Below, in pieces: positions 11,003-64,000 of a stretch of DNA of 64,000 nt. Below the pieces are notes generated by a model. It did not search any database, was not told the DNA's origin, and saw only the letters and a program-made list of their open reading frames with translations. Every line of letters begins with the position of its first letter. The stretch's first letter is position 1. The stretch is from an uncultured Gammaproteobacteria bacterium (GTDB taxonomy: Bacteria > Patescibacteriota > Patescibacteriia > Magasanikbacterales > GWA2-37-8), in contig CAZINT010000001.1 in NCBI GenBank assembly GCA_964540825.1, positions 348,565 to 412,564 of the forward strand. The letters run 5' to 3'. The position numbers were made by a program, and so were the translations under genes.

Positions 11003-11548
11003 ATGACTGAATCTATTATTTTTGGCGGTGGGTGTTTCTGGTGTATGGAAGCGGTTTTCCAAATGCTTGAGGGGGTCACCGGTGTTGCTTCCGGCTACAC
11101 AGGCGGCACAATTCCGAACCCAACCTATGAACAAGTGTGCACTGGTCGCACCGGGCATGCTGAAGCGATCAAAATTGATTTTGATCCTGCTAAAATTAAG
11201 CTAACAGATTTATTGGCGGTTTACTTTACATCGCACGACCCAACCACTTTGAATCGGCAGGGGAATGATGTGGGTACGCAGTATCGTTCGTCAATTTTTT
11301 ATAGCACACCCGAACAGCTCGAAATAACTAAAAAATTTATTGCCGAGCTTGAGGCTGATAAAACTTTTTCAGATCCTATTGTTACGACACTAGAGCCGCT
11401 CACTCTATTTTATCCAGCGGAACAATATCACCAAAATTATTACCGCAACAATGAAAGTCAACCATATTGTCAGTTCGTGATTAATCCTAAAATTACTAAG
11501 CTGCGTCAAAAATTTGCGCACTTATTAAAGCCGGGAATGACAGCTTAA
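11003..11548 (+). CDS. msrA: peptide methionine sulfoxide reductase A
   Basis: Catalytic 'GGGCFWCMEAVF' and 'HDPTTLNRQGNDVGTQYRSSIFY' motifs. Confidence 0.85.
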   Translation: MTESIIFGGGCFWCMEAVFQMLEGVTGVASGYTGGTIPNPTYEQVCTGRTGHAEAIKIDFDPAKIKLTDLLAVYFTSHDPTTLNRQGNDVGTQYRSSIFYSTPEQLEITKKFIAELEADKTFSDPIVTTLEPLTLFYPAEQYHQNYYRNNESQPYCQFVINPKITKLRQKFAHLLKPGMTA

Positions 11549-14759: not shown

Positions 14760-15365
14760 TTAGAGAATTCTTTTGAAAGGTTTTTCGGTGATTTCTCCAA
14801 ATTCATACACCCACGGAATTCCCGTTGGAATTTCCAAAGTAATAATTTCTTCAGGCGTCAGTCCTTCTAATTTCATCACCAGAGCACGCAGACTGTTATG
14901 ATGCGCAGTAACCAAAATATTTTTCCCTTGAGCTAATTCTTTCTCGATTATTTCTTCAAAATGTTTGTGCACGCGCGCAGCGGTATCGGCCAGGCTTTCT
15001 CCCTCGGGTGGGCGCGTATCGTAGCTGCGGCGCCACAGTTTTACCTGCGCTTCGCCGTGAAGTGCGATTGTCTCGGCGTGGGTTTTGCCTTGGAGAGCTC
15101 CATAATGCCGTTCGTTAAGGGCGCTAAAAGTTTGCAGCGGTAGATGTTGTTTGTTAATCGCGGCCAAGGCGATTTTGGCAGTTTCAATAGCGCGAGTCAG
15201 TAGGGAAGTGTGGACTAATGAGATGTCAAAATCAGCGAGTTTTTCGCCAGCCAGGCGAGCTTGCAATTCGCCTTCGGCCGAGAGGGGAATATCGGTTTGG
15301 CCGGTGAAACGGCCCTCGGCATTCCAGAGAGTTTTGCCGTGGCGAAGGAGGATGAGGGTGGGCAT
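14760..15365 (-). CDS. gpmA: 2,3-bisphosphoglycerate-dependent phosphoglycerate mutase (short form)
   Basis: 'LRHGKTLWN', 'LNERHYGALQG', 'LWRRSYDTRPP', 'TAHHNSLRALV', 'IPTGIPWVYEF' match dPGM. Confidence 0.8.
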   Translation of the reverse strand: MPTLILLRHGKTLWNAEGRFTGQTDIPLSAEGELQARLAGEKLADFDISLVHTSLLTRAIETAKIALAAINKQHLPLQTFSALNERHYGALQGKTHAETIALHGEAQVKLWRRSYDTRPPEGESLADTAARVHKHFEEIIEKELAQGKNILVTAHHNSLRALVMKLEGLTPEEIITLEIPTGIPWVYEFGEITEKPFKRIL

Positions 15366-15465
15366 AATTATAATCTAAGTAGCACATCGTATTGTAACAG
15401 GTGAAAAATGGATAAGCAATTGGCAATAAAAAAATAACCTTTTACGGTTACAAATGAAGAGGGCT

Positions 15466-15500
15466 GGGCGGGGCAGCCAGTGTGAGTGGCCGCCCCGCCC
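15466..15500 (-). terminator. GC-rich hairpin downstream of the islet-1 gene
   Basis: GGGCGGGGCAGCC / GGCCGCCCCGCCC arms (one mismatch), T-run on minus strand shortly after. Confidence 0.45.
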
Positions 15501-15518
15501 GTCTAGAATTTTCCCGAT

Positions 15519-16628
15519 CTAGGTGGGGGGAGTGATGAGTCCGTGCTCCCAGTCGGTGCTGAGGAATTTGGTGAGGTGCGGACGCAGCGCCTGGATGCCG
15601 GGCAATACCAGTTCGGCGTACACCGCGAGCGCACTGCCGGCCTGGGCAAAATCAAGGGCCAGCCCGGTCAGTTCGTGCATCGAGCGGTCCAGTTCGAACT
15701 CGTGACGCATCTTTCTTCCCCGGGTGTTCTGCTGGGCGATCTCGGGGATGAAGCCTAGATGGTCGGTGAGAAAAGCAACTCCCAGTTGGCGACGGTTCGG
15801 CAGGTTCTGCTGTGTAGCCACTGAACAGGAAGCGGCAGTCAGCTCGTTGCCCTGCACTGTCGCGCTGATGCTGTACTGTTGGGTGAAGATCAGGTCCGGA
15901 AGGAGGCTCGCATTGTGCATGCTGGGCCGAAGTACCGGAGGCAGGATGGCGCTGACGCACTCTTCGTAGCGATCCAGATCCACGAAGTTCGGTCCCTCGA
16001 CTTTTTCGACACGGGGCAGCGACTTCCCGAGTTCCACGCTTTCCAGCTTGCGAAGCACTTTCTCGATCAGCTTCGCTTCTTCGCTTGCCAGATAGCGGAG
16101 TGGCCCCACAAAGTAGCGGCGCGCCCGCTCGACTCGCTGCTTGAGCTGGCACCAGTGGAAGGCGATCCAGAGCGGGCCATGATCCCGTCCGATGGGGCGA
16201 CCGTCGTCGAAGGTCCACCTGCACTTGATGATGACGTGCTCGCCGATCGTCTGGCGCATCACGTTGAGGCCGAGTCGGTAACTTCCGCGCCCGAGGGCTA
16301 CTTGGCGCAAGCCCTTATAGCGCAGCGTTCCGATGCCGAACTCCACCGTGTTCTTCTGGCCGGCGAACTCGCCGCTCGCCATTCCCTCTTCGATTCTGAA
16401 GGGGGCGAGCAAATTGCTGGGCTCATGGTAGAGCGACCACTCGGTCGGCAGGAGGGCGTCACTCGGATCGACTCTGACTTCGCCATCGCCCATGTTGTGC
16501 AGAAGGAGAAAAGGGGTCGTGGGCACCTCTTCGTAATCATCCTCGCGCACTTCCCAGGCGCCGAACGGTTGGAGGAGTGGTGGAAGTTGGGGAAAGACGA
16601 TCTGGTTCTTGTAGAAACGAGCAGGCAT
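15519..16628 (-). CDS. hypothetical protein encoded in GC-rich islet 1
   Basis: 369-aa ORF; own promoter (16766-16794, minus), SD-like 'AAGGA', downstream hairpin; no recognisable domain. Confidence 0.5.
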   Translation of the reverse strand: MPARFYKNQIVFPQLPPLLQPFGAWEVREDDYEEVPTTPFLLLHNMGDGEVRVDPSDALLPTEWSLYHEPSNLLAPFRIEEGMASGEFAGQKNTVEFGIGTLRYKGLRQVALGRGSYRLGLNVMRQTIGEHVIIKCRWTFDDGRPIGRDHGPLWIAFHWCQLKQRVERARRYFVGPLRYLASEEAKLIEKVLRKLESVELGKSLPRVEKVEGPNFVDLDRYEECVSAILPPVLRPSMHNASLLPDLIFTQQYSISATVQGNELTAASCSVATQQNLPNRRQLGVAFLTDHLGFIPEIAQQNTRGRKMRHEFELDRSMHELTGLALDFAQAGSALAVYAELVLPGIQALRPHLTKFLSTDWEHGLITPPT

Positions 16629-16765
16629 TCTCTGGTTCCTTGCTCTCCCTTTCCTGGGTTAGGCTCCGGTCGTTTGTGGCGACATGCGGAGGAGTCTTGG
16701 TGACTCTCAGGAGCAGCTCTTGCGAAGTAAAAATTACTTCGCTCAGCTGTTCCGGAGAACAGGTG

Positions 16766-16794
16766 ATAGTACATCAAATAAGTGATTTTGTCAA
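16766..16794 (-). promoter_or_regulatory. sigma-70 consensus promoter on minus strand (TTGACA-17-TACTAT) driving islet-1 gene; ~130-nt leader with two hairpins (16722-16742, 16747-16762)
   Basis: Reverse complement of 16789-16794 = TTGACA; of 16766-16771 = TACTAT. Confidence 0.45.
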
Positions 16795-16812
16795 TAATAA
16801 TGTGATAAAAAT

Positions 16813-16835
16813 AAAGACGCTTTTTAAGCGTCTTT
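16813..16835 (-). terminator. hairpin AAAGACGC-N7-GCGTCTTT immediately 3' of tRNA-Lys (minus strand)
   Basis: Perfect 8-bp stem; T-run follows on minus strand. Confidence 0.45.
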
Positions 16836-16841
16836 ACTCGG

Positions 16842-16914
16842 TGGGTCGGCCGGGGCTCGAACCCGGGACCTTATCCTTAAAAGGGATCTGCTCTACCAGC
16901 TGAGCTACCGACCC
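16842..16914 (-). tRNA. tRNA-Lys (anticodon UUU)
   Basis: Manual fold: acceptor GGGTCGG/CCGACCC, D-arm GCTC/GAGC, anticodon loop CTTTTAA, T-arm CCGGG-TTCGAGC-CCCGG; 73 nt. Confidence 0.8.
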
Positions 16915-17083
16915 AATATGGGTTTCTGGTTGTTTCTAAAATGACAAGGGAAATAATAGCACAGGCTTTTATAATAATCAAGAGCCGGGATTTCCACAGA
17001 GTAGAGCCATTTTATAATTTAGACTTTTACAGGAAGTAATGATATACTAGGGTTGTTTTAGAGCTTATTTTTAGCCTAGGTAT

Positions 17084-21522: not shown

Positions 21523-22389
21523 ATGCCTGATAAATTTACCGCCACCTGGATTTCTCATACTTCTTCAAGTGATTTTTTGCGCTGCCCGAGGGCGTATTAT
21601 TTAAAGCATGTCTATCGTGACCCAAAAACGAATCATAAAATAAAAGTAATGGCCCCGGCCCTTGCGCTTGGCCAGGCAGTGCACGAAGTTTTGGAAAGTT
21701 TATCGGTTTTACCTAAAAATACTCGCTTTTCAGAGTCACTCATTGCCAAGCTGGATACGGCGTGGGAAAAAGTAAAAGGGAAAAAAGGCGGTTTTATCGA
21801 TGCAGACGTTGAGTACAAATACAAAATGCGCGCGCAAGAAATGCTGAGGCGGGTGATGCAAAATCCCGGGCCCTTAGCTGGCCTTGCTGTAAAAATCCAA
21901 ATGGATCTGCCCTATATATGGTTATCTGAAGAAGATAATATTATTTTGTGTGGTAAGGTCGACTGGCTTGAATATTTGGTCGAGACAGACACAGTACATA
22001 TTATTGATTTTAAAACAGGTAAATCTGAAGAAGATCCGGATTCGCTGCAGCTGCCGATGTATTTACTTCTCGTTAATGAATGCCAGAAGCGGCCTGCTTC
22101 TAAAGCCAGTTATTGGTATTTGGATAGCGGTTCCGCATTGACGCCAAAAGAATTGCCCGACATTGAAAGTGCGCGCAAGAAGGTGCTCGACGTGGCTCGT
22201 CAAATGAAAGTGGCCCGTCAGATCGAGCGTTTTAAATGCCCTGAGGGGGAGGGTGGATGCTTCGCCTGTAAACCAATGGAAATGATCGTGCGCCATGAAG
22301 CAGAATTTGTTGGCAGCGATGAATACAATTGTGATGTCTACGTTTTAGACAAGGCCGAAGAAGAAAATCGCGAAGGAATTATTTTGTAG
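21523..22389 (+). CDS. PD-(D/E)XK nuclease, Cas4/RecB-nuclease-domain-like, with 4-Cys Fe-S cluster signature
   Basis: N-terminal Cys 'LRCPRAYY', 'GKVDWL', 'IIDFKTGK', 'QLPMYLL', C-terminal 'CPEGEGGCFACKP'; start moved to ATG 21523 to clear tRNA-Gly. Confidence 0.6.
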   Translation: MPDKFTATWISHTSSSDFLRCPRAYYLKHVYRDPKTNHKIKVMAPALALGQAVHEVLESLSVLPKNTRFSESLIAKLDTAWEKVKGKKGGFIDADVEYKYKMRAQEMLRRVMQNPGPLAGLAVKIQMDLPYIWLSEEDNIILCGKVDWLEYLVETDTVHIIDFKTGKSEEDPDSLQLPMYLLLVNECQKRPASKASYWYLDSGSALTPKELPDIESARKKVLDVARQMKVARQIERFKCPEGEGGCFACKPMEMIVRHEAEFVGSDEYNCDVYVLDKAEEENREGIIL

Positions 22390-22415
22390 GAAATTTTAAT
22401 AGTGGTGTGCATATA

Positions 22416-22452
22416 AAAAACAACGCCTTGTCAGCGCTGTTTTTAATTTTTT
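22416..22452 (+). terminator. Rho-independent terminator after Cas4-like gene
   Basis: 11-bp stem (one mismatch) AAAAACAACGC..GCGCTGTTTTT followed by T-rich tract. Confidence 0.45.
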
Positions 22453-22454
22453 AA

Positions 22455-22513
22455 CATCCGGGCTCACATTGGGTAACAAATTTTGTTGCGCAATGTGAGC
22501 GGCCCGGATGTGT
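22455..22513 (-). terminator. long imperfect inverted repeat downstream of islet-2 lipoprotein gene
   Basis: CATCCGGGCTCACATTG ... CAATGTGAGC(GG)CCCGGATG arms, internal spacer itself palindromic. Confidence 0.4.
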
Positions 22514-22569
22514 GGTGATTCGAGCTGCACCGGCTGCATGGTGCGTCCGGCCGCTCGAGGGAGGTCAGG

Positions 22570-23325
22570 CTAGTTGATCTTGAGCACGCGCCCCTTGAGG
22601 AGGCAGGTGGTGCTATCTCCGCACTCCTTGGTGTTCACTCCGTCGAAGGAGTACTGGAAGAACAGGACCTGCTGGAACTCCTGCCCGGAGACGAACGCGC
22701 CCGTGTCCACCGTCTGGGTCATCTGCACCGACGTGTTCGCCGGCACCTTGAACGCGAGGTTCTTCGGCTGCGCGTCCGACGGGTAGAGCACGTAGAACAT
22801 GTCGTGGCACTGCGTGCTGTTCGTGGCGTGGAGCGGGGCGGGGGACCAGTTCATGACCCGGTGTGCGTCGTCGACGCCGCCGACGTAGAGGTCGGCGTTG
22901 GCCATGAGGCGGGTCGCGCTCGTGTAGAGGTGCGAGTACGGATGCACCCAGACGTCGGTGGCCTCGGCGGTGAAGTTCGCCACCAGGACCTGCTGCCCGG
23001 GCATCTGCACCACGGACCCGCCCGGACTTTTCACGAGGTCGAGGGACGCCGAGACGACCCCCGGCACGCCCGTCGAGGCGCTCGACTCGGGGTCCTTGAA
23101 CGAGTCGTTGTCCATGCAGAAGCGGACCATCATCGGACCGGGCGGGGGGATGTCCTGGCAGACGTAGACCCCTTGGCCGTCCTTGACCGTGTACTGGTCC
23201 GACCGGCAGTCCGGCAGTTGAAGGGCGTCCTTGGCGCCCGTACCGCCGCACCCACCGGAGAGGACCGAGCTGGCGAGAAGACCGAGGCCGAGAAAAGAAA
23301 TGCTGGAAACCGCGCTGCGCCGCAT
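22570..23325 (-). CDS. secreted lipoprotein, function unknown, in GC-rich islet 2
   Basis: Signal peptide plus lipobox 'VLSGGCGG'; strong SD AAGGAGG 7 nt upstream of ATG; Cys-containing extracytoplasmic domain. Confidence 0.5.
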   Translation of the reverse strand: MRRSAVSSISFLGLGLLASSVLSGGCGGTGAKDALQLPDCRSDQYTVKDGQGVYVCQDIPPPGPMMVRFCMDNDSFKDPESSASTGVPGVVSASLDLVKSPGGSVVQMPGQQVLVANFTAEATDVWVHPYSHLYTSATRLMANADLYVGGVDDAHRVMNWSPAPLHATNSTQCHDMFYVLYPSDAQPKNLAFKVPANTSVQMTQTVDTGAFVSGQEFQQVLFFQYSFDGVNTKECGDSTTCLLKGRVLKIN

Positions 23326-23365
23326 GCACTACCTCCTTGGTAGCCGAGCAGGGCACCTTGCCCCG

Positions 23366-23409
23366 CAGACGGTACTAAGAGAAATACGTATTTCTCTTAG
23401 TACCGTCTG
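23366..23409. repeat. 44-nt near-perfect palindrome (21-bp arms) in 5' region of islet-2 gene
   Basis: CAGACGGTACTAAGAGAAATA-CG-TATTTCTCTTAGTACCGTCTG. Confidence 0.55.
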
Positions 23410-23604
23410 ACTACCGTATGTGCATGATTGCGGCATGCAACCAAAACAGGCTAGCATATTTTTATATATTTGTCAAGGATAGTATTTATTATTTCGGCTA
23501 GAATAAGGTAAAAATTTACTCTTTTTTTCATGAGTGCACATTTGCTTTATGTAGTCGCTAGAGTATACTAGGTACAAAATTTAGTTGTGCATGTAGTTTT
23601 TTGT

Positions 23605-24948
23605 ATGACCAGAAAAAAGAAAATAACCATTGATTTTAACACCGAATTTGGCCGGGCATTCGAATTGATGGAGAAAACCCGCCAGAATGTTTTTATTACC
23701 GGGCGTGCTGGCACTGGCAAATCGACGCTCCTCAGTCATTTTCGCGATACAACCAAAAAGAATGTCGTAGTTCTGGCGCCAACAGGTGTGGCGGCCGTGA
23801 ACATCGCGGGTCAGACAATTCATTCTTTTTTTCATTTTAAACCTGATGTAACGATACAAAAAGTGCGGCGCACTAAAGTGTCCGAAGGAGAGGCGGTTAC
23901 CTATCAACGGCTCGAGACAGTCATAATTGACGAAATTTCCATGGTTCGCGCCGATCTTTTGGATTGCATCGATGTATTTTTACGCCTGCACGGCCCTAAT
24001 TCGAGCAAACCTTTTGGTGGTGTACAGATGATTTTTATCGGTGACTTGTTTCAGTTGCCGCCCGTGACAACAGCTGACGATACCAAGATTTTTGCCGGGC
24101 ACTATGCAAGCCCTTACTTTTTTTCGGCGCACGTATTTTTGCCGGGCCAACAAGAATTATTTGGCGAGCAATCAGGTTTTACAATGGAACGCATTGAACT
24201 TACGAAAATGTATCGTCAAAAAGATGCAGAGTTTATCGGCCTTTTGAATAGCATACGGAGTACAACTGCGGGGAAGGCTGAATTTGATGCTTTGAATGCG
24301 CGGCTTAACCCGGCGTTTGAACCTGCGCCGGAGGAAATGTATATGTACCTTACGACTACTAACGCTATGGCTGATGAAGTAAATGCGCGCAAGCTTAGTC
24401 AGCTCGAAACAGACAATTATTTTTTTAAAGGTCAGATGAGCGGAAAATTTGATGAAAAGTATTTACCAACTGCACCGGATTTAAACATTAAGATTGGCGC
24501 TCAGATAATGATGCTCAATAATGATCTTGGTGGACGCTGGATTAACGGTACTGTGGGCCGCATTGAAGGCGTAACTGATGGGGGAGACGGTGAGCCTCGA
24601 GCGATTGAGGTGCTGCTTGAAAATGGCAGCGTCGAGCTCGTTACCCCGCATCGCTGGGATATTTATAATTTCAGCTACAATGCTGACTCCAAGCGTATCG
24701 AGTCTGAATCGGTCGGTACCTTTACCCAATACCCGTTAAAATTGGCCTGGGCCGTAACGATTCATAAAAGCCAAGGGAAAACGTTTGAACGGCTCATTAT
24801 TGATATTGGACGCGGCACGTTTTCAGCCGGGCAATTGTATGTCGCACTTAGCCGGGCCACAACGCTTGAGGGGCTGGTTCTGAAACGCCCGCTCCAAAAG
24901 CACCATATCTGGCTCGACCCCAAAGTGGTGGCATTTATGAATGAATAA
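23605..24948 (+). CDS. SF1B DNA helicase, Pif1/RecD2 family
   Basis: Walker A 'GRAGTGKST', 'VVVLAPTGVAAVNI', 'IIDEISMV', hallmark 'IGDLFQLPPV', 'TIHKSQGKTFE', 'ALSRATTLEGLVL'; GTG 23587 or ATG 23605 start. Confidence 0.7.
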   Translation: MTRKKKITIDFNTEFGRAFELMEKTRQNVFITGRAGTGKSTLLSHFRDTTKKNVVVLAPTGVAAVNIAGQTIHSFFHFKPDVTIQKVRRTKVSEGEAVTYQRLETVIIDEISMVRADLLDCIDVFLRLHGPNSSKPFGGVQMIFIGDLFQLPPVTTADDTKIFAGHYASPYFFSAHVFLPGQQELFGEQSGFTMERIELTKMYRQKDAEFIGLLNSIRSTTAGKAEFDALNARLNPAFEPAPEEMYMYLTTTNAMADEVNARKLSQLETDNYFFKGQMSGKFDEKYLPTAPDLNIKIGAQIMMLNNDLGGRWINGTVGRIEGVTDGGDGEPRAIEVLLENGSVELVTPHRWDIYNFSYNADSKRIESESVGTFTQYPLKLAWAVTIHKSQGKTFERLIIDIGRGTFSAGQLYVALSRATTLEGLVLKRPLQKHHIWLDPKVVAFMNE

Positions 24949-27529: not shown

Positions 27530-28210
27530 ATGATTACTTTACAAGGCGTTTCAAAATTTTATACTACTGCTTCGGTCGGACTCCGTGATGTTAACCTCTC
27601 TATTGAGCCTGGGGAATTTGTTTCAATTGTTGGTCAGAGTGGAGTTGGTAAAACAACTCTGGTTAAACTCCTTATTGCCGAAGAGCAGCCGACAAAAGGC
27701 AGGGTGGAAATTGGCGGCTGGGATATTACCCGCATTGGACGCAATGATATTCCATACCTGCGCCGGCAAATTGGCGTTATTTTTCAGGATTTTAAATTGT
27801 TACCTAAAAAAACCGTTTTTGAAAACGTTGCTTTTGCTTTAGAAGTTGCGGGGACTGCCCCGGCGCGCATTAAACAAGTGGTACCCCAAGTACTCGATAT
27901 TGTCGGGCTTGCCGGTAAATATGATCGCTATCCTAATCAGATCTCGGGCGGAGAGCAGCAGCGTGTTGTAATCGCGCGTTCACTCGTGCATACTCCTAAA
28001 ATTATTGTTGCCGATGAACCAACCGGAAACTTAGATTCGATTAATACCGAAGAAATTATCACTATCCTCAAAAAAATTAATGAATTTGGAACAACGATCG
28101 TTTTGGTAACACACAATCGTGAAGTCGTTAATCAACTTCGCCGCCGCGTCATCACGCTCCATGATGGAAAAATTATCAGCGATGAGGCCGAAGGAAAATA
28201 TGTTTTGTAG
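27530..28210 (+). CDS. ftsE: cell division ABC transporter ATP-binding protein FtsE
   Basis: Walker A 'GQSGVGKTT', signature 'LSGGEQQRVVIARS', Walker B 'IIVADEPTGNLD'. Confidence 0.85.
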   Translation: MITLQGVSKFYTTASVGLRDVNLSIEPGEFVSIVGQSGVGKTTLVKLLIAEEQPTKGRVEIGGWDITRIGRNDIPYLRRQIGVIFQDFKLLPKKTVFENVAFALEVAGTAPARIKQVVPQVLDIVGLAGKYDRYPNQISGGEQQRVVIARSLVHTPKIIVADEPTGNLDSINTEEIITILKKINEFGTTIVLVTHNREVVNQLRRRVITLHDGKIISDEAEGKYVL

Positions 28211-28213
28211 CTT

Positions 28214-29122
28214 ATGACTTCATTCCTGCGCATTATTAAATTTGCTTTTCAAGACATTGCCCGCAATTTGGGCTTGTCGTTTATGACCGTGTTTATTTTG
28301 GTCCTCATGCTTTTGTCGATCAATATTTTGTGGTCGGTGCAAGTAGTCACCACAGAAGCGGCCGGGCTTATCAAAAATCAAGTCAATGTTAGCTTTTATT
28401 TAGTATCAACTGCTACCGATAAAAATATTGCCGATCTCAAAAATTTTATTACTTCTTTTTCAGAGGTTACGAATGTCGAAGTGCTGTCTCGCCAAGACGT
28501 GCTTGCCTCGTTTCAGCAGCGCCACCAAATGAGTCAGGAGGTTCTTGATGCGCTCAAAGAGCTTGGCGGCAACCCTTTTGGGCCTACGCTCGTGGTTACG
28601 GCCAAACAGCCCGAAGACTATACCAAAATTATCAGTGCGCTTGATGTACCTGAATACCGTCCGCTTATTGAATCTAAGAGTTTTGATGGTCACGAAGAAG
28701 CCATTACCACTATTCAAAATATTACTAATCGGGTAGAAAACGTCGGCCTCGGCTTATCGCTCATTTTTGCTGTTATTTCATTCATGATTATTTTTAATAC
28801 TATTCGAGTAGCGATTTATACTCAGCGTACTGAAATCAGTATTAAACGTCTGGTAGGGGCTAATAATTGGTTTATACGCGGCCCTTATTTGGTAGAGTCG
28901 GCCCTGTTTACCTTGCTCAGCGTTATTGTTACGGGCCTCATTATTTATAAGGCTTTTGGCCTCATTGACCCCTACCTCAGCGTTGTTTTCCCGACCGGCT
29001 TTTCCTTGACAAATTACTACCATTCACATATCCTTACGTTGATTTTAGTCCAGGGTGGAGCGGTATTATTCTTGACCGTACTCTCGAGCGGCCTTGCTAT
29101 GCAGAAGCATCTAAAGGTCTAG
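28214..29122 (+). CDS. ftsX: cell division permease-like protein FtsX
   Basis: Adjacent to ftsE; N-terminal TM, periplasmic domain, C-terminal 3-TM FtsX-like module. Confidence 0.75.
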   Translation: MTSFLRIIKFAFQDIARNLGLSFMTVFILVLMLLSINILWSVQVVTTEAAGLIKNQVNVSFYLVSTATDKNIADLKNFITSFSEVTNVEVLSRQDVLASFQQRHQMSQEVLDALKELGGNPFGPTLVVTAKQPEDYTKIISALDVPEYRPLIESKSFDGHEEAITTIQNITNRVENVGLGLSLIFAVISFMIIFNTIRVAIYTQRTEISIKRLVGANNWFIRGPYLVESALFTLLSVIVTGLIIYKAFGLIDPYLSVVFPTGFSLTNYYHSHILTLILVQGGAVLFLTVLSSGLAMQKHLKV

Positions 29123-29142: not shown

Positions 29143-29169
29143 ATTCCGCCTTCTTGGCGGAATTTTTAT
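29143..29169 (+). terminator. Rho-independent terminator after ftsX
   Basis: ATTCCGCC-TTCTT-GGCGGAAT then TTTTAT. Confidence 0.5.
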
Positions 29170-29240
29170 TCGGGGATCGTCTAAAGGTAGGACAGCAGCC
29201 TTTGAAGCTGTTTATCTAGGTTCGATTCCAACCAGTGGAT
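29170..29240 (+). pseudogene. degenerate tRNA-Gln-like copy (intact 5' half incl. anticodon loop CTTTGAA; T-stem and 3' acceptor strand do not pair)
   Basis: TCGGGGA-TC-GTCT-AAAGGTA-GGAC-A-GCAGC-CTTTGAA-GCTGT-TTAT-CTAGG-TTCGATT-CCAAC-CAGTGGA; same architecture as 29274-29347 but 3' half unpaired. Confidence 0.3.
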
Positions 29241-29273
29241 TGAACCTTTAACAAGTTGGCTAACATAACACAC

Positions 29274-29347
29274 TCGGAGTTCGTCTAACGGCAGGACAGC
29301 GCCCTTTGAAGGCGCTTATCCAGGTTCGAATCCTGGACTCCGAACCA
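29274..29347 (+). tRNA. tRNA-Gln (anticodon UUG), CCA encoded
   Basis: Manual fold: acceptor TCGGAGT/ACTCCGA, D-arm GTCT/GGAC, anticodon stem GCGCC/GGCGC loop CTTTGAA, T-arm CCAGG-TTCGAAT-CCTGG, then ACCA. Confidence 0.8.
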
Positions 29348-29365
29348 AGTAATCTAACTTCCAAA

Positions 29366-29392
29366 AAGTTCGCTTAATCGCGAGCTTTTTTT
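29366..29392 (+). terminator. Rho-independent terminator after tRNA-Gln
   Basis: AAGTTCGC-TTAATC-GCGAGCTT (one U.G) followed by TTTTT. Confidence 0.5.
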
Positions 29393-29463
29393 GTTGCTCG
29401 CCATAGGTCGAAAACAAAAATTACCTTGGCATTTATGAATCCTTAAAGGGTTCCCAGCTTACC

Positions 29464-29802
29464 ATGGCACTTGAGACTTTCCTGCTGACTAGTTCAGACG
29501 GAAAGGTAGAGCGCCTAAACCTAATCTGCCAAGGTATGGGGTCAGCTGGGAATTTTCTAAGGATTTTTTATATGTCTAATTGTATGAGGCTATACCACGA
29601 TCGTTTTAACTCAAACGGAATTATGTACGGCCAAGAGAAGCCGGTTCGTTGGGGTCGGGTGGTCCTGTTTATAGCGGTGTTAATTGCTGTGCTCTACGGC
29701 GCGCGTTTAATTCAAAATTATCGAGCCCTTAAAACTATATGCAAACAACAACCTGCGGACATGACGTGTCAGGTGACGATGCGCGAAACGTTGGCAATAT
29801 GA
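29464..29802 (+). CDS. hypothetical protein (weak)
   Basis: 112-aa ORF between tRNA-Gln and phage genes; C-terminal TM; may be non-coding. Confidence 0.25.
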   Translation: MALETFLLTSSDGKVERLNLICQGMGSAGNFLRIFYMSNCMRLYHDRFNSNGIMYGQEKPVRWGRVVLFIAVLIAVLYGARLIQNYRALKTICKQQPADMTCQVTMRETLAI

Positions 29803-29864
29803 CTTGTTGTGCAGGATGCCAGGATCGTCACCGTGACAGCTTAGAAGAATAAAATTATTTTCTT

Positions 29865-30152
29865 ATGCAGCTTATAAAAATAGATGGGACAACTACTGAG
29901 GTCGAGCCGCAAAATGGTAAAAAGTTTTCCCTTGATGAGCTTCGAGGCTATGTCGGAGGAACTATCGATACGGTCAGGCTTCCCAAAAGCGGTAAGTACA
30001 TGATCGTAAATGATAATGGCAAGCTGGACGGCCTGCCAAAAAATGAAAGGGCTACTGAAATCTGGAAAAAGGAATTTCCGATCAGTGAGTATCCGCACAA
30101 TAATGACGAATTGATTGTGGGGGATGTGCTGATGGGATCTCTCCAAGAATAG
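29865..30152 (+). CDS. DUF3846-like phage protein
   Basis: N-terminal pattern 'MQLIKIDGTTTEVEPQ..SLDELRGYVGGTIDTV' typical of DUF3846. Confidence 0.45.
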   Translation: MQLIKIDGTTTEVEPQNGKKFSLDELRGYVGGTIDTVRLPKSGKYMIVNDNGKLDGLPKNERATEIWKKEFPISEYPHNNDELIVGDVLMGSLQE

Positions 30153-30209: not shown

Positions 30210-31022
30210 ATGTCTACAAAGAAAGATACCTCATTGGTGAAGACCGGTCAAGAAGGTCTAAGCCAAGAACAAATCGCTCTTATTACGCGCACTATTGCCA
30301 AGGGAGCCTCACCAGACGAATTACAGCTCTTTATTGGCCAATGCAACCGGACTGGCCTCGACCCCTTCTCGCGTCAAATTTATGCGATCAAACGCTGGGA
30401 TAGTCGTGAACAACGAGAAGTAATGGGCATTCAAGCAAGCATTGATGGTCTACGTTTGGTAGCTGAACGAACAGGTAAGTATGCTGGTCAAACACCGGTT
30501 GAGTGGTGTGGTAGTGATGGACAGTGGGTAGACGTATGGCTTAAAGAAGGACCACCAGTTGCAGCAAAAGTCGGCGTACTTCGCAAAGACTTTTCCGAAC
30601 CGTTAGTGGCTGTAGCAAAGTATAGAAGCTACGTTCAGACCTTCAAAAATAAACAAACCGGAAAATTTGAACCATCGAGCTTCTGGCAGAAAATGCCTGA
30701 ACTTATGCTCGGCAAGGTGGCGGAAGCATTGGCTTTAAGAAAAGCATTCCCTCAAGAACTGAGCGGACTTTATACAACCGAAGAAATGTCCAACGCCGAC
30801 GAGCAGCAATTTAAGGAACCTCCAAAAAAACCAGAAACCAAAGAAGAAGCCGCAGTTGAAGGTGAAGTGGTAGGAGAAAAAAAAGAAGTAACTGGTACAC
30901 CGCCTAACGAATCTGAATGTACTAACTGTGCAAAATTGATTACACCGGCAGAAATTGGTTTTTCTAAAAGACGCTACGGCAAAGCACTTTGTCGTGAATG
31001 TCAGAAAGGAGCACAAGTATGA
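30210..31022 (+). CDS. recT: RecT-family single-strand annealing recombinase with C-terminal zinc ribbon
   Basis: '[23 protein letters not shown]' RecT signature region; C-terminal CxxC..CxxC. Confidence 0.7.
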
Positions 31023-42416: not shown

Positions 42417-42911
42417 ATGGAAAAAGTTTTGACGCCGGAGCAATGCTACGTTCCGCCCCATTCAACAATTTGCCGGAAAGTCGTCCAAAAAGATATTAAG
42501 CGAGTGATCAAGGACGGCCAGCTGATGTTTGAGCTCTGCACGGCACCAGTTGGGAACTACCGGAGAGCCTACGCCATCGCTCATTCACAAATTACCGATA
42601 AAGATCCGCTGCGCTTCTTCGTTACTAGCAGCCAGGCCGTTATCATAAACCCGGCCATTGTACGGAAGACCGAAGCTCTAAAACATGAGCTCGAAGGGTG
42701 CATGACTTTTCCGTTGGCCAAGCCTGTCCTGAAGGGTAGATCGTACCGCTGCGAGGTTGAGTACCAGACGATTGATCCGGACGGCAAACTGACCGAGGTC
42801 CGGGTCTGGCACCTGAAGGGAATTGAAGCGCGGATGATACAGCATGAGATTGATCACCTTAACGGAATTTATCTTTATCCCTTTGATGTATGGCAGAAGT
42901 TATCGACCTAG
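42417..42911 (+). CDS. def: peptide deformylase, phage-encoded
   Basis: Motif II 'EGCMTFP', motif III 'QHEIDHLNG', motif I-like 'YAIAHSQI'. Confidence 0.65.
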   Translation: MEKVLTPEQCYVPPHSTICRKVVQKDIKRVIKDGQLMFELCTAPVGNYRRAYAIAHSQITDKDPLRFFVTSSQAVIINPAIVRKTEALKHELEGCMTFPLAKPVLKGRSYRCEVEYQTIDPDGKLTEVRVWHLKGIEARMIQHEIDHLNGIYLYPFDVWQKLST

Positions 42912-63543: not shown

Positions 63544-63650
63544 TGTCATGTTTTCCGGTTTTGAAGATATGGTCCCATACCCGGCCAACTAAGACTCCGA
63601 CTGCTCCACCGACTAAGAGAATGATGATAGTGTTCATAATTAAAATAAGA

Positions 63651-63929
63651 TTATTCAACGGTTTCTAAGTTATCTAAAGCTTCGCCCATCTCATCGTAGC
63701 TTTCCCAGGCGTAGTATCTCGCGTCCTCGATATTACTGTTGGCTTGTTCGAGCATATCCTGATTTTCCTGTAGCTCGTCCTCCTTTATTCTTAGGTCGTA
63801 ACTGAGGTTACTATTATCAGCTTCGAGTTCTTGTATGGTTTCATTCTTGGTTTTGATCTTCGCACCCATCGCTATAATGATGATGGCTAGGAAAATTATT
63901 AAACCAGTTTTACCTGGTGACTCATTCAT
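63651..63929 (-). CDS. hypothetical TM plus coiled-coil protein on opposite strand (possible start of a divergent module)
   Basis: 92-aa minus-strand ORF; a ~31-aa TM peptide ORF also lies on minus strand at ~63547-63639. Confidence 0.35.
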   Translation of the reverse strand: MNESPGKTGLIIFLAIIIIAMGAKIKTKNETIQELEADNSNLSYDLRIKEDELQENQDMLEQANSNIEDARYYAWESYDEMGEALDNLETVE

Positions 63930-64000
63930 AGACTCCTCCTTAAAATTTAAATGGATTAGTGGGATCAGGTATGTTTCTCTTATAAAGAGTTATGCCCTTA

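Follow-up and report, generated by a model that had tools for sequence, protein, structure and literature searches.

In a 64,000-nt stretch of DNA (the whole of it is called the window below, and all coordinates refer to it) we find a temperate podovirus-like phage of Candidatus Magasanikbacteria (Patescibacteria/CPR) that has cut the tRNA-Gln gene of its host and that probably replaces it with a tRNA-Gln of its own, an arrangement known as tRNA-dependent lysogeny. The pattern matches the one described by Guerrero-Bustamante & Hatfull (mBio 2024, PMC10865867), and we therefore class it there, in a new phylum. The initial annotation had proposed a tRNA-targeted, site-specific prophage junction of unusual geometry, and an empty-site strain (L148), from which the window diverges exactly at 29229, bears this out. 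It had also taken the intact tRNA for the resident gene and the copy upstream of it for a decayed duplicate; relatives and the empty-site strain show these roles to be reversed.

Host locus downstream of ftsX

The host side of the junction consists of the following features.

27530-28210, + strand: host ftsE (Pfam ABC_tran 9e-36), left chromosomal flank together with ftsX
28214-29122, + strand: host ftsX (Pfam FtsX 1.5e-12, FtsX_ECD 1.8e-10), left chromosomal flank
29143-29169, + strand: hairpin and T-run (ATTCCGCC-TTCTT-GGCGGAAT TTTTAT), terminator-like, between ftsX and the native tRNA
29170-29229, + strand: severed native tRNA-Gln(UUG) of the host, of which the first 60 nt, up to and including the T-loop, remain (the stump); host side of attL

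The stump and the first 60 nt of the intact tRNA form a 60-nt direct repeat with 82% identity (blastn E 8e-4, within the window), so the similarity on which the initial annotation relied is real. The term half, however, understates it, since the repeat spans the acceptor 5' strand, D-arm, anticodon arm, variable loop, T-stem 5' strand and T-loop, and ends after GGTTCGATTCC. In line with the initial annotation, pairing of the T-stem and acceptor is impaired in the upstream copy (acceptor 3/7, T-stem 3/5), and its cloverleaf retains 15/21 pairs; all 21/21 form in the intact copy, as they do in the native tRNA-Gln of the empty-site strain. Scoring of both copies agreed with this: ARAGORN called a tRNA-Gln(UUG) at 29274-29347 and nothing at the stump, and the Rfam tRNA model gave 61.9 bits for the former versus 26.8 bits, below the gathering score of 29, for the latter. 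A functional, if odd, tRNA at the stump is ruled out by that Rfam score and the 15/21 pairs.

Identity and position both connect the stump with the host. It is identical at 60/60 positions to the orthologous tRNA-Gln of L083 and to that of L148, and the same 60-nt stretch of the intact copy matches these genes at just 49/60. About 37 Magasanikbacteria relatives have a single tRNA-Gln(UUG) after ftsX, mostly within ~20-70 nt of it. The distance from the ftsX stop to the tRNA start is 48 nt for the stump, 51 nt in L083 and 49 nt in L098, and the hairpin/T-run sequence at 29143-29169 is identical in L083. Tandem tRNA-Gln genes after ftsX were found neither in the 37 relatives scanned nor in the empty-site strain; the relatives have one UUG copy per 20-kb locus, and one of them has a separate CUG gene. 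Sequence comparison with these loci thereby identifies the stump at 29170-29229 as the host's own tRNA-Gln(UUG), severed at the T-loop. The sequence 3' of tRNA-Gln is variable between relatives, and L097 carries a relic 3' tRNA fragment at the ftsX/tRNA-Gln locus.

Left junction and empty site

29219-29229, no strand assigned: putative common core GGTTCGATTCC (T-stem end and T-loop); right limit fixed, left limit taken from the related phage L152
29230-29273, + strand: phage arm beside the core (AACCAGTGGATTGAACC...), a 44-nt spacer ahead of the phage tRNA; absent from L148 and L083

The empty-site strain is 98.5% identical to the window over a shared 822 bp that ends exactly at 29229. Past this point L148 reads TAGTCCCCGAAC, a terminator and host genes, with its tRNA-Gln uninterrupted. 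The homology of L083 to the window also stops at 29229, and its tRNA likewise runs on as TAGTCCCCGAAC. Judged against L148, L083, L098 and other orthologous loci, the insertion point lies after nucleotide 60 of the host tRNA-Gln(UUG). This exact left junction, established by alignment, shows the DNA from 29230 onward to be inserted: 44 nt, a complete divergent tRNA-Gln(UUG) and a full phage genome. The existence of so close a strain without the insertion also counts against the alternative, raised initially, that the phage genes are ancient domesticated residents.

The phage arm at 29230-29273 completes neither the T-stem nor the acceptor stem. The native tRNA is not rebuilt at the left junction because the phage sequence that follows the core provides no usable tRNA 3' end. 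In an alignment, the arm shows a faint likeness to a tRNA 3' end (TGGA..GAACC).

The right limit of the core, 29229, is the point where the window departs from both L148 and L083. Its left limit comes from L152, in which the host-identical sequence starts at GGTTCGATTCC; the core length of 11 bp is thus taken over from a phage whose integrase is only 58% identical. This 11-mer has a single occurrence in the window.

The Logan assembly of SRR11567520 breaks within the stump, one contig ending at 29196 and the next beginning at 29200. At k=31 such contig ends match a 63-nt repeat over 29167-29229, which would fit a phage-borne tRNA 5' part that rebuilds the native gene at attR. Other genomes in SRR11567520 with the same tRNA could equally well cause these breaks. 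Logan contig L150 contains the left junction independently, with 30 nt of the native tRNA on its left.

Phage-borne tRNA-Gln

29274-29347, + strand: complete tRNA-Gln(UUG) with encoded CCA, phage-borne (ARAGORN; Rfam tRNA)
29363-29397, + strand: intrinsic-terminator-like hairpin (11-pair stem; fold z -3.6) with a T7 run, downstream of the phage tRNA

Comparison with the empty site of L148 places the intact tRNA-Gln within the insertion, and it is therefore carried by the phage. It is identical to the native gene at 58/72 positions, with five compensatory double changes in the stems and the U1-A72 pair kept. These five compensatory changes point to two independently maintained tRNA lineages, not to a decaying duplicate. 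The nearest of 38 Magasanikbacteria tRNA-Gln genes matches it at 63/72 positions, and its T-loop, GGTTCGAATCC, has one mismatch to the core. ARAGORN found no other tRNA-Gln within the window, and the flanks of the phage gene gave no similarity that would point to a donor host. The share of CAA among Gln codons is 49% for the sampled host genes and 45% for the phage genes.

The phage tRNA begins 44 nt in from the junction, has the orientation of the stump and is followed by its own terminator. Since no terminator lies between the stump and the tRNA, integration may put the phage gene under the control of the host tRNA-Gln promoter.

Prophage body and integrase

29865-63543, + strand: prophage body in the window (Pfam and PHROG matches)
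63545-64000, - strand: small membrane-protein genes at the window end (translations)

The phage-like genes noted initially downstream of the tRNA are indeed present. They start at 29865 with a DUF3846 protein, followed by RecT at 30210 and an exonuclease at 30998, and all lie on the + strand to ~63.5 kb. Further along are genes for a replication initiator, DnaB, a ParB-like protein, peptide deformylase and the small and large terminase subunits, as well as virion genes (portal, major capsid protein, SU10-type adaptor and internal virion/tail proteins). The best known match of the major capsid protein is the TM7 phage DolZOral124_53_65, at only ~25% identity. The AT skew changes at ~29-30 kb from ~-0.06 to +0.2.

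The initial annotation had remarked on the lack of an integrase. None is encoded within the window; however, one is present ~1.9 kb past its end, on contiguous DNA. Beyond the window follow a 160-aa ORF, a 252-aa ORF and then the tyrosine integrase P0126 (363 aa), at ~65.9-67.0 kb in window numbering. P0126 has a Pfam Phage_integrase match, matches phrog_1 at 1.9e-31 and conserves the catalytic residues R137, K171, H242, R245, H268 and Y277; its identity to GenBank phages is at most 28%. Logan contig L149, which is 100% identical to window 63616-64000, continues for another 2.6 kb and breaks off within the integrase gene. For each of FtsX, RecT and the integrase, the contig on record is 416,063 bp long.

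We estimate that the prophage extends from 29230 to 67.4 kb in window numbering, or ~38 kb. A search of the window for further copies of the tRNA or its pieces returned only chance 11-13-mers, and attR must therefore lie outside it. At the far end we expect the last ~12 nt of the native tRNA (TAGTCCCCGAAC) after a short T-loop core, and not a piece of the intact tRNA. The gene next after the tRNA in L148 and L083 encodes a 314-aa protein, for which the lysogen's contig has no recorded homologue, so the right-hand flank is possibly not the same as in the empty-site strain.

Related phages

The most informative relative is L152, whose integrase is 58% identical and whose RecT region shows ~72% nucleotide identity. 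In L152, int and a small ORF are followed by GGTTCGATTCC and an intact tRNA 3' end, and RecT comes after 219 nt of host flank. No tRNA gene is present on the recovered contig, and the arm to the left of its core, with no ARAGORN call and nothing in Rfam at E<=1, is not a tRNA 5' part. From this arrangement, L152 appears to be a tRNA-restoring relative that carries a normal restoring tRNA 3' fragment.

RecT relatives in IMG/VR reach at most 70% identity among the matches listed, and a tRNA-Gln was found at none of the 60 loci scanned of the 80 listed. Searches of viral, metagenome and genome collections with DnaB, the integrase and exact patterns of the tRNA and junction recovered no copy of this phage elsewhere; the single match obtained with the tail-end protein was irrelevant.

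Proposed mode of lysogeny

We propose that the tyrosine integrase recombined a short attP core (~GGTTCGATTCC) with the T-loop of the host tRNA-Gln(UUG) downstream of ftsX. The first 60 nt of the native tRNA have stayed behind as a dead stump, and its last ~12 nt would be expected at the far junction. The phage tRNA-Gln, which has the same anticodon, would then supply CAA/CAG decoding in the lysogen, and its expression may come from transcription that starts at the host tRNA promoter and reads through the stump. We infer the core length in this phage, the non-restoration of the gene at attR, the single-copy state of the host tRNA and the dependence of the lysogen on the phage tRNA.

If this scheme is correct, expression of the phage tRNA would be coupled to the integrated state, and the lysogen would decode CAA via a phage allele that differs from the native one at 14/72 positions; where there is no separate tRNA-Gln(CUG), CAG too would be decoded by this allele. 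CPR genomes are tiny and presumably have single-copy tRNA genes, which would make the phage tRNA gene essential to the lysogen. It seems to us an evenly balanced question whether this is the first tRNA-dependent lysogeny from the Candidate Phyla Radiation and from any host that is not Gram-positive, with a T-loop core, coupling to a host promoter and a phage allele that decodes CAA. A CPR example would show the strategy recurring in a very distant phylum. To our knowledge, well-delimited, apparently intact CPR prophages are still scarce. Together with the empty-site strain, which matches it at 98.5% over the common flank, and the restoring-type relative L152, the lysogen offers a clean natural comparison.

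Comparison with known systems

tRNA-dependent lysogeny has been shown experimentally in mycobacteriophages (Guerrero-Bustamante & Hatfull, PMC10865867). Its members are the mycobacteriophages Fionnbharth/K4, LeBron/L, Cain/K6 and Gaia/X and the Gordonia phages BrutonGaster, OneUp and Mollymur; the core is short (~8-17 bp), and a functional tRNA is rebuilt at neither attL nor attR (PMC10865867). How frequent the strategy is outside actinobacteriophages was left open in that work. The prophage described here resembles these systems in its tyrosine integrase, in an attB within a host tRNA gene and in a phage-arm junction without a rebuilt tRNA. A divergent phage-borne tRNA is common to them too: the one here agrees with the host gene at 58/72 positions and with the closest bacterial gene at 63/72, and that of Fionnbharth is 88% identical to its nearest. 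The pairing of such a phage with a long-att restoring relative that has no tRNA gene is also shared: L152 has this role here, and Boilgate, Ximenita and Omega have it among the pairs of Table 2 in PMC10865867.

There are also clear differences. The host is a member of the CPR and not an actinobacterium, and the target is tRNA-Gln(UUG) rather than a tRNA for Lys, Ile2 or Leu. Crossover occurs in the T-loop, whereas the cores of attB-4 and attB-11 start in the anticodon region, judged by the 43-44-bp restoring cores that cover the gene's 3' half. Only 44 nt separate the phage tRNA from the crossover, and it is co-oriented with the stump, whereas that of Fionnbharth lies elsewhere, overlapping gene 37. 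Lactobacillus johnsonii prophage Lj965 is a further non-actinobacterial candidate: as described in the Discussion of PMC10865867, to which our comparison is confined, it has a junction without a rebuilt tRNA and encodes a cognate tRNA, although its host belongs to a different phylum and the phage itself is different.

Classical integration of the T-loop class (Ms6 at tRNA-Ala, PMC1762012; the 'J' sites of Islander, PMC4383910) likewise involves a tyrosine integrase and a crossover within the symmetric DNA of the T-loop/T-stem. In that class, however, attP matches the tRNA as far as its 3' end, with regeneration of the gene, whereas here the sequence beyond the core is degenerate and attL forms no tRNA. 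L152 appears to be of the classical T-loop type. The Islander signature, an intact tDNA of host plus element with the displaced fragment at the opposite end, differs from what we see, as the fragment and the element-derived tRNA are 44 nt apart on the same side. Islands with a 5' fragment (159/3919 in Islander, PMC4383910) also have a 5' fragment of the target tRNA upstream of the element, but their regenerated tRNA is at the far end, whereas here a complete tRNA lies inside the element, 44 nt from the fragment. An Islander-type search for a tRNA plus a displaced 3' fragment rejects this geometry, and such elements are therefore systematically missed or mis-bounded.

Other phages with CPR hosts, namely TM7 phage DolZOral124_53_65 and the Absconditicoccaceae prophages (bioRxiv 10.1101/2024.03.08.584096), are tailed as well. 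Unlike the prophage here, the Absconditicoccaceae prophages were reported without tRNA genes in that preprint.

Alternative explanations

The mirror image of the proposed geometry would have attP hold approximately the first 60 nt of tRNA-Gln, so that a native-type gene is rebuilt at attR and the tRNA at 29274 is accessory cargo. We consider this unlikely, yet it has several points in its favor. Elements that displace a 5' tDNA fragment are the known minority mentioned above, the Logan ends at 29196/29200 are those expected of a 63-nt repeat (29167-29229) that occurs in the sample in two contexts on its left and two on its right, and L152 shows past exchange of att-flanking host DNA in this phage group. 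However, the Logan breaks could also come from other CPR genomes that share the tRNA, and in L152, the only relative with a visible integrase-side arm, the arm left of the core contains no tRNA 5' part. Moreover, it would be an unexplained coincidence that the sole tRNA of a 38-kb phage has the anticodon of the target and lies 44 nt from the crossover, and in the mycobacteriophage survey (PMC10865867) the restoring phages were without a cognate tRNA.

Alternatively, the 44 nt and the tRNA-Gln, perhaps to ~29.86 kb, could be the remnant of an older island whose tRNA was later entered by the 38-kb phage. Tandem arrays are common at tRNA hot spots (125 in Islander, PMC4383910), and the variable region 3' of tRNA-Gln and the relic in L097 would suit such a history. 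A composite element of this kind would predict the phage-type tRNA 3' end (…CCTGGACTCCGAACCA) at attR. In L152, though, the integrase-side arm joins a native-type tRNA-Gln 3' end and flank at GGTTCGATTCC, which is the partner expected for the 29229 junction and not for the T-loop of the intact copy (GGTTCGAATCC), and the interval 29348-64000 contains no second copy of the core or tRNA fragment. We therefore regard the composite as improbable.

Also improbable is an assembly chimera in which a free phage with a tRNA-Gln-like attP was joined to the host contig via shared tRNA sequence, the sampled cells having no integrated copy. Transfer RNA genes are classic mis-join points, and in the independent Logan assembly contigs break off to either side of the stump. 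Against this, FtsX, RecT and the integrase are all on record from the 416,063-bp contig, and L150 holds the junction independently with its 30 nt of native tRNA. The 11-bp core is also too short for a mis-join; the 63-nt repeat would be required, and that repeat would itself mean a tRNA-Gln-targeting temperate phage that gives exactly this junction.

Classical integration into the intact tRNA at 29274-29347, with a 3' fragment at the far end and the upstream copy an unrelated decayed tandem duplicate, is the commonest geometry (3' fragments in 3760/3919 Islander islands, PMC4383910) but can hardly apply here, as the intact tRNA and the preceding 44 nt are absent from the 98.5%-identical empty site and from all relatives, the relatives have only the native-type gene, at the stump position and never in tandem among the 37 scanned, and it is the stump (60/60) rather than the intact copy (58/72) that agrees with that gene.

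Other elements near the junction

29430-29575, + strand: intergenic element of strong structure, in which a long, imperfect hairpin that contains an internal junction precedes a U-run
29572-29802, + strand: 76-aa ORF with one hydrophobic segment (gene call on Logan contig L150)
29767-29835, no strand assigned: imperfect inverted repeat with ~14-bp arms (~29767-29780 and 29821-29835)

Three further features lie between the phage tRNA and the first phage gene. The element at 29430-29575 folds at -57.5 kcal/mol (z -6.1) with 26-nt inverted-repeat arms, and 0/200 shuffles fold equally well; it matches no Rfam family, and no counterpart was found in L152. The 76-aa ORF has no Pfam or PHROG match. 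The inverted repeat had been listed initially among the peculiarities of the junction. It does exist, but its fold (-31.1 kcal/mol, z -1.8) is only modestly better than shuffles and it has no role in the att geometry; we rejected it as a part of att, since it is weak and 540 nt away from the junction. It adjoins a promoter-like GTGACA-17-TATTTT (29833-29861) upstream of the DUF3846 gene and is possibly an operator or terminator.

A severed host tRNA-Gln gene at the prophage junction

ARAGORN identified four tRNAs in the window, among them a tRNA-Gln(UUG) at 29274-29347 that scores 61.9 bits against the Rfam tRNA model. Upstream of it, 29170-29229 forms a 60-nt direct repeat with 82% identity to the first 60 nt of the intact gene, a likeness that extends through the T-loop (GGTTCGATTCC versus GGTTCGAATCC), with none beyond. 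The upstream copy does not qualify as a tRNA, since it was not called by ARAGORN, its Rfam score (26.8 bits) falls below the gathering score of 29, and 15 of 21 cloverleaf pairs are possible. This scoring of both copies confirms the intact tRNA-Gln and degenerate upstream copy described in the initial annotation. The sequence around them is organized as follows.

Left of the junction: ftsE and ftsX, host flank
From 29865, + strand throughout: phage gene block, with DUF3846, RecT and exonuclease genes first
Further phage genes, + strand: replication initiator, DnaB, ParB-like protein, peptide deformylase and both terminase subunits
42417-42911, + strand: the peptide deformylase (Pfam Pep_deformylase, 1.2e-16), among the early and middle genes
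Structural genes, + strand: portal, major capsid protein, SU10-type adaptor and internal virion proteins

Peptide deformylase is an auxiliary gene better known in cyanophages. AT skew shifts sharply at the host/phage boundary.

With FtsX as the query, scanning species-representative genomes placed the host in Candidatus Magasanikbacteria (Patescibacteria/CPR). About 37 relatives have one tRNA-Gln(UUG) after ftsX, mostly ~20-70 nt away, and in the window it is the degenerate copy, 48 nt past the ftsX stop, that fills this slot. In a relative whose FtsX is 95% identical (L083), the tRNA up to nucleotide 60 and the intergenic region before it are the same as in the window. After nucleotide 60, L083 continues into TAGTCCCCGAAC, a normal T-stem and acceptor 3' strand, whereas the window reads AACCAGTGGATTGAACC; the last base of blastn homology is exactly 29229. 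An empty-site Logan contig from a different sample (L148) is 98.5% identical over 822 bp, also ending at 29229, and past the junction carries the remainder of the native tRNA, then a terminator and host genes. Because homology to both stops at 29229, the upstream copy is the resident host tRNA gene, severed after nucleotide 60, and the DNA from 29230 on is an insertion with the intact tRNA-Gln 44 nt within it. Together with the phage genes from 29865, these comparisons bear out a tRNA-targeted prophage junction, but "duplicate", the earlier term for the upstream copy, does not hold. The geometry noted as unusual is real, and would be explained by a severed host stump and a replacement tRNA brought by the phage.

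The intact and native tRNA-Gln genes are identical at 58 of 72 positions, and both keep 21/21 stem pairs and U1-A72; five compensatory double substitutions separate them, affecting the acceptor stem twice, the anticodon stem twice and the T-stem once. The closest match to the intact tRNA in a set of 38 Magasanikbacteria tRNA-Gln genes agrees with it at 63/72. Given these values, the intact tRNA is a CPR-type tRNA-Gln foreign to this host. It has its own terminator-like hairpin, and its flanks showed no resemblance to the relatives' tRNA loci. CAA accounts for 45-49% of Gln codons, so a tRNA with a UUG anticodon is needed.

A terminator-like hairpin and T-run at 29143-29169 (+), conserved in L083, stops one base before the native tRNA-Gln and leaves no space for a dedicated promoter. 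Therefore, the native tRNA, and the phage tRNA once integrated, may arise from the ftsEX transcript through read-through and processing. In another relative, of the Magasanikiibacteriota (L097), an intact tRNA-Gln (11175-11246) is followed after 51 nt by a 38-nt fragment (11297-11334) spanning the anticodon loop to the 3' end. This looks like what remains of a classical integration of the anticodon-loop type at the same tRNA, which would make the locus a recurrent integration hot spot.

Integrase, related phage and far end

A Logan contig from the lysogen's sample (L149) is 100% identical to window positions 63616-64000 and reaches 2.6 kb past the window end; the ftsX and RecT regions also have 100%-identical copies in that sample. 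The window end falls inside the element. The extension holds a pair of unknown ORFs as well as a tyrosine recombinase gene up to codon 223. The complete product of this gene (P0126, 363 aa), the window FtsX and the window RecT are each recorded on a 416,063-bp contig. P0126 matches phrog_1 "integrase" (1.9e-31), retains the catalytic R-K-H-R-H-Y residues, and has only two detectable relatives in a set of 5.8 billion proteins. The initial annotation saw no integrase, which is correct for the window but not for the element; no repressor, which it also proposed to look for, was identified anywhere in the element. A C-terminal CxxC...CxxC that resembles a zinc ribbon is common to P0126 and its two homologues (C319, C322, C335 and C338 invariant; P0126 residues ~319-339, at ~66.9 kb, past the window). 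Such an extension is atypical for lambda-type integrases.

One relative, 58% identical, lies on an ENA contig (L152) in the order integrase, 56-aa ORF, ~190 nt of non-tRNA sequence, GGTTCGATTCC, AAGTCCCCGAGCA plus 219 nt, and a RecT gene with ~72% DNA identity to the window's. Over the stretch of AAGTCCCCGAGCA plus 219 nt, the contig matches the 3' end of tRNA-Gln and the flank after it in another relative (L085) at 95% identity; no complete tRNA was found in L152. Since its int-att-RecT order is a circular permutation of the window prophage, we read L152 as the probable attP region of a sister phage with a classical, restoring tRNA 3' fragment. Host-identical sequence in L152 begins at GGTTCGATTCC, which suggests a core of ~11 bp. 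The restoring phage thus lacks a tRNA gene, whereas the window phage, not restoring at attL, has one. In L152 (regions 1155-1392 and 1798-2243), 242 nt of host DNA lie between the att core and RecT and span the tRNA-Gln T-loop to 3' end, both terminators and the next host gene's first codons. This suggests capture by aberrant excision, and the same excision looks to have deleted the segment that in the window phage holds the tRNA and the DUF3846 gene.

A more distant homologue (46% identical; L151, 271-1822) is followed by a 52-aa ORF and, ~170 nt past it on the opposite strand, a complete tRNA-Gln(CUG) with its 3' end toward the integrase, which could mark a classical junction or be a further cargo tRNA-Gln next to an att site.

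The integrase gene should end at ~67.0 kb in window numbering. In L152 the core follows the integrase stop by ~400 nt, which by analogy would put attR at ~67.4 kb, ~3.4 kb past the window end, and the prophage would therefore measure ~38 kb.

Comparison with tRNA-dependent lysogeny

A mechanism of this kind has already been described as "tRNA-dependent lysogeny" (Guerrero-Bustamante & Hatfull, mBio 2024, PMC10865867). There, a tyrosine integrase uses an attB inside a tRNA gene, a core of 8-17 bp means that the tRNA is not reconstructed, and lysogeny requires a phage-encoded tRNA of the same isotype, which complements the lost one; related phages have 43-52-bp cores, restore the tRNA and lack a phage tRNA (PMC10865867). 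Those authors considered the mechanism possible beyond actinobacteriophages, citing Lj965 of Lactobacillus (PMC10865867). The case in the window agrees in its integrase, in its attB, in an attL that does not restore the tRNA and in a cognate tRNA on the phage, and the sister phage (L152) parallels the restoring relatives. It differs in host phylum and tRNA identity, in a crossover within the T-loop, and in a phage tRNA 44 nt from the crossover and co-oriented with the stump. The junction is best classed as a probable instance of tRNA-dependent lysogeny in a new, poorly studied host phylum, in which the phage's intact tRNA-Gln would replace the severed host gene in the lysogen. The phage T-loop (GGTTCGAATCC, 29323-29333) and the putative core in the host gene (GGTTCGATTCC, 29219-29229) are one base apart, a difference that might keep the phage tRNA from being targeted by its own integrase.

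The main alternative, though an unlikely one, is that attP carries the first ~60 nt of the tRNA and the native gene is rebuilt at attR. Islander lists 159 of 3919 islands with the 5' part as the displaced fragment. Moreover, in the Logan assembly of the lysogen's sample one contig ends at 29196 and the next begins at 29200; with k=31, 29167-29229 must have two left and two right contexts in the sample, exactly the pattern that a 63-nt attL/attR repeat would give. However, non-lysogenic cells plus another CPR species sharing the tRNA would produce these breaks equally, the matching arm of L152 is not tRNA-like, and it would take an unexplained coincidence to place a cognate tRNA next to the att site. 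Classical integration into the intact tRNA, a composite element and an assembly chimera are less probable still, being opposed by the empty site, the L152 junction and an independent Logan junction contig.

Other features of the element and host flank

Intergenic positions 29430-29575 (+), which lie after the terminator of the phage tRNA and ahead of the first phage ORFs, can fold into a long and very stable hairpin that contains an internal junction (-57.5 kcal/mol, z -6.1); a U-run follows. No Rfam family matched this element and L152 has no counterpart of it; it could act as a small RNA of the phage or as a site in the DNA itself. At 63545-64000 (-) and in L149, two to three small membrane-protein ORFs break the otherwise all-plus prophage, directly preceding two ORFs of no known identity and then the integrase; their roles may be in lysis, exclusion or lysogeny. 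The host part contains two G+C-rich patches (15000-17000 and 22000-24000; 0.53-0.56 versus ~0.46 elsewhere), each with long ORFs overlapping on both strands, such as 15519-16628 (-) and 15879-16703 (+).
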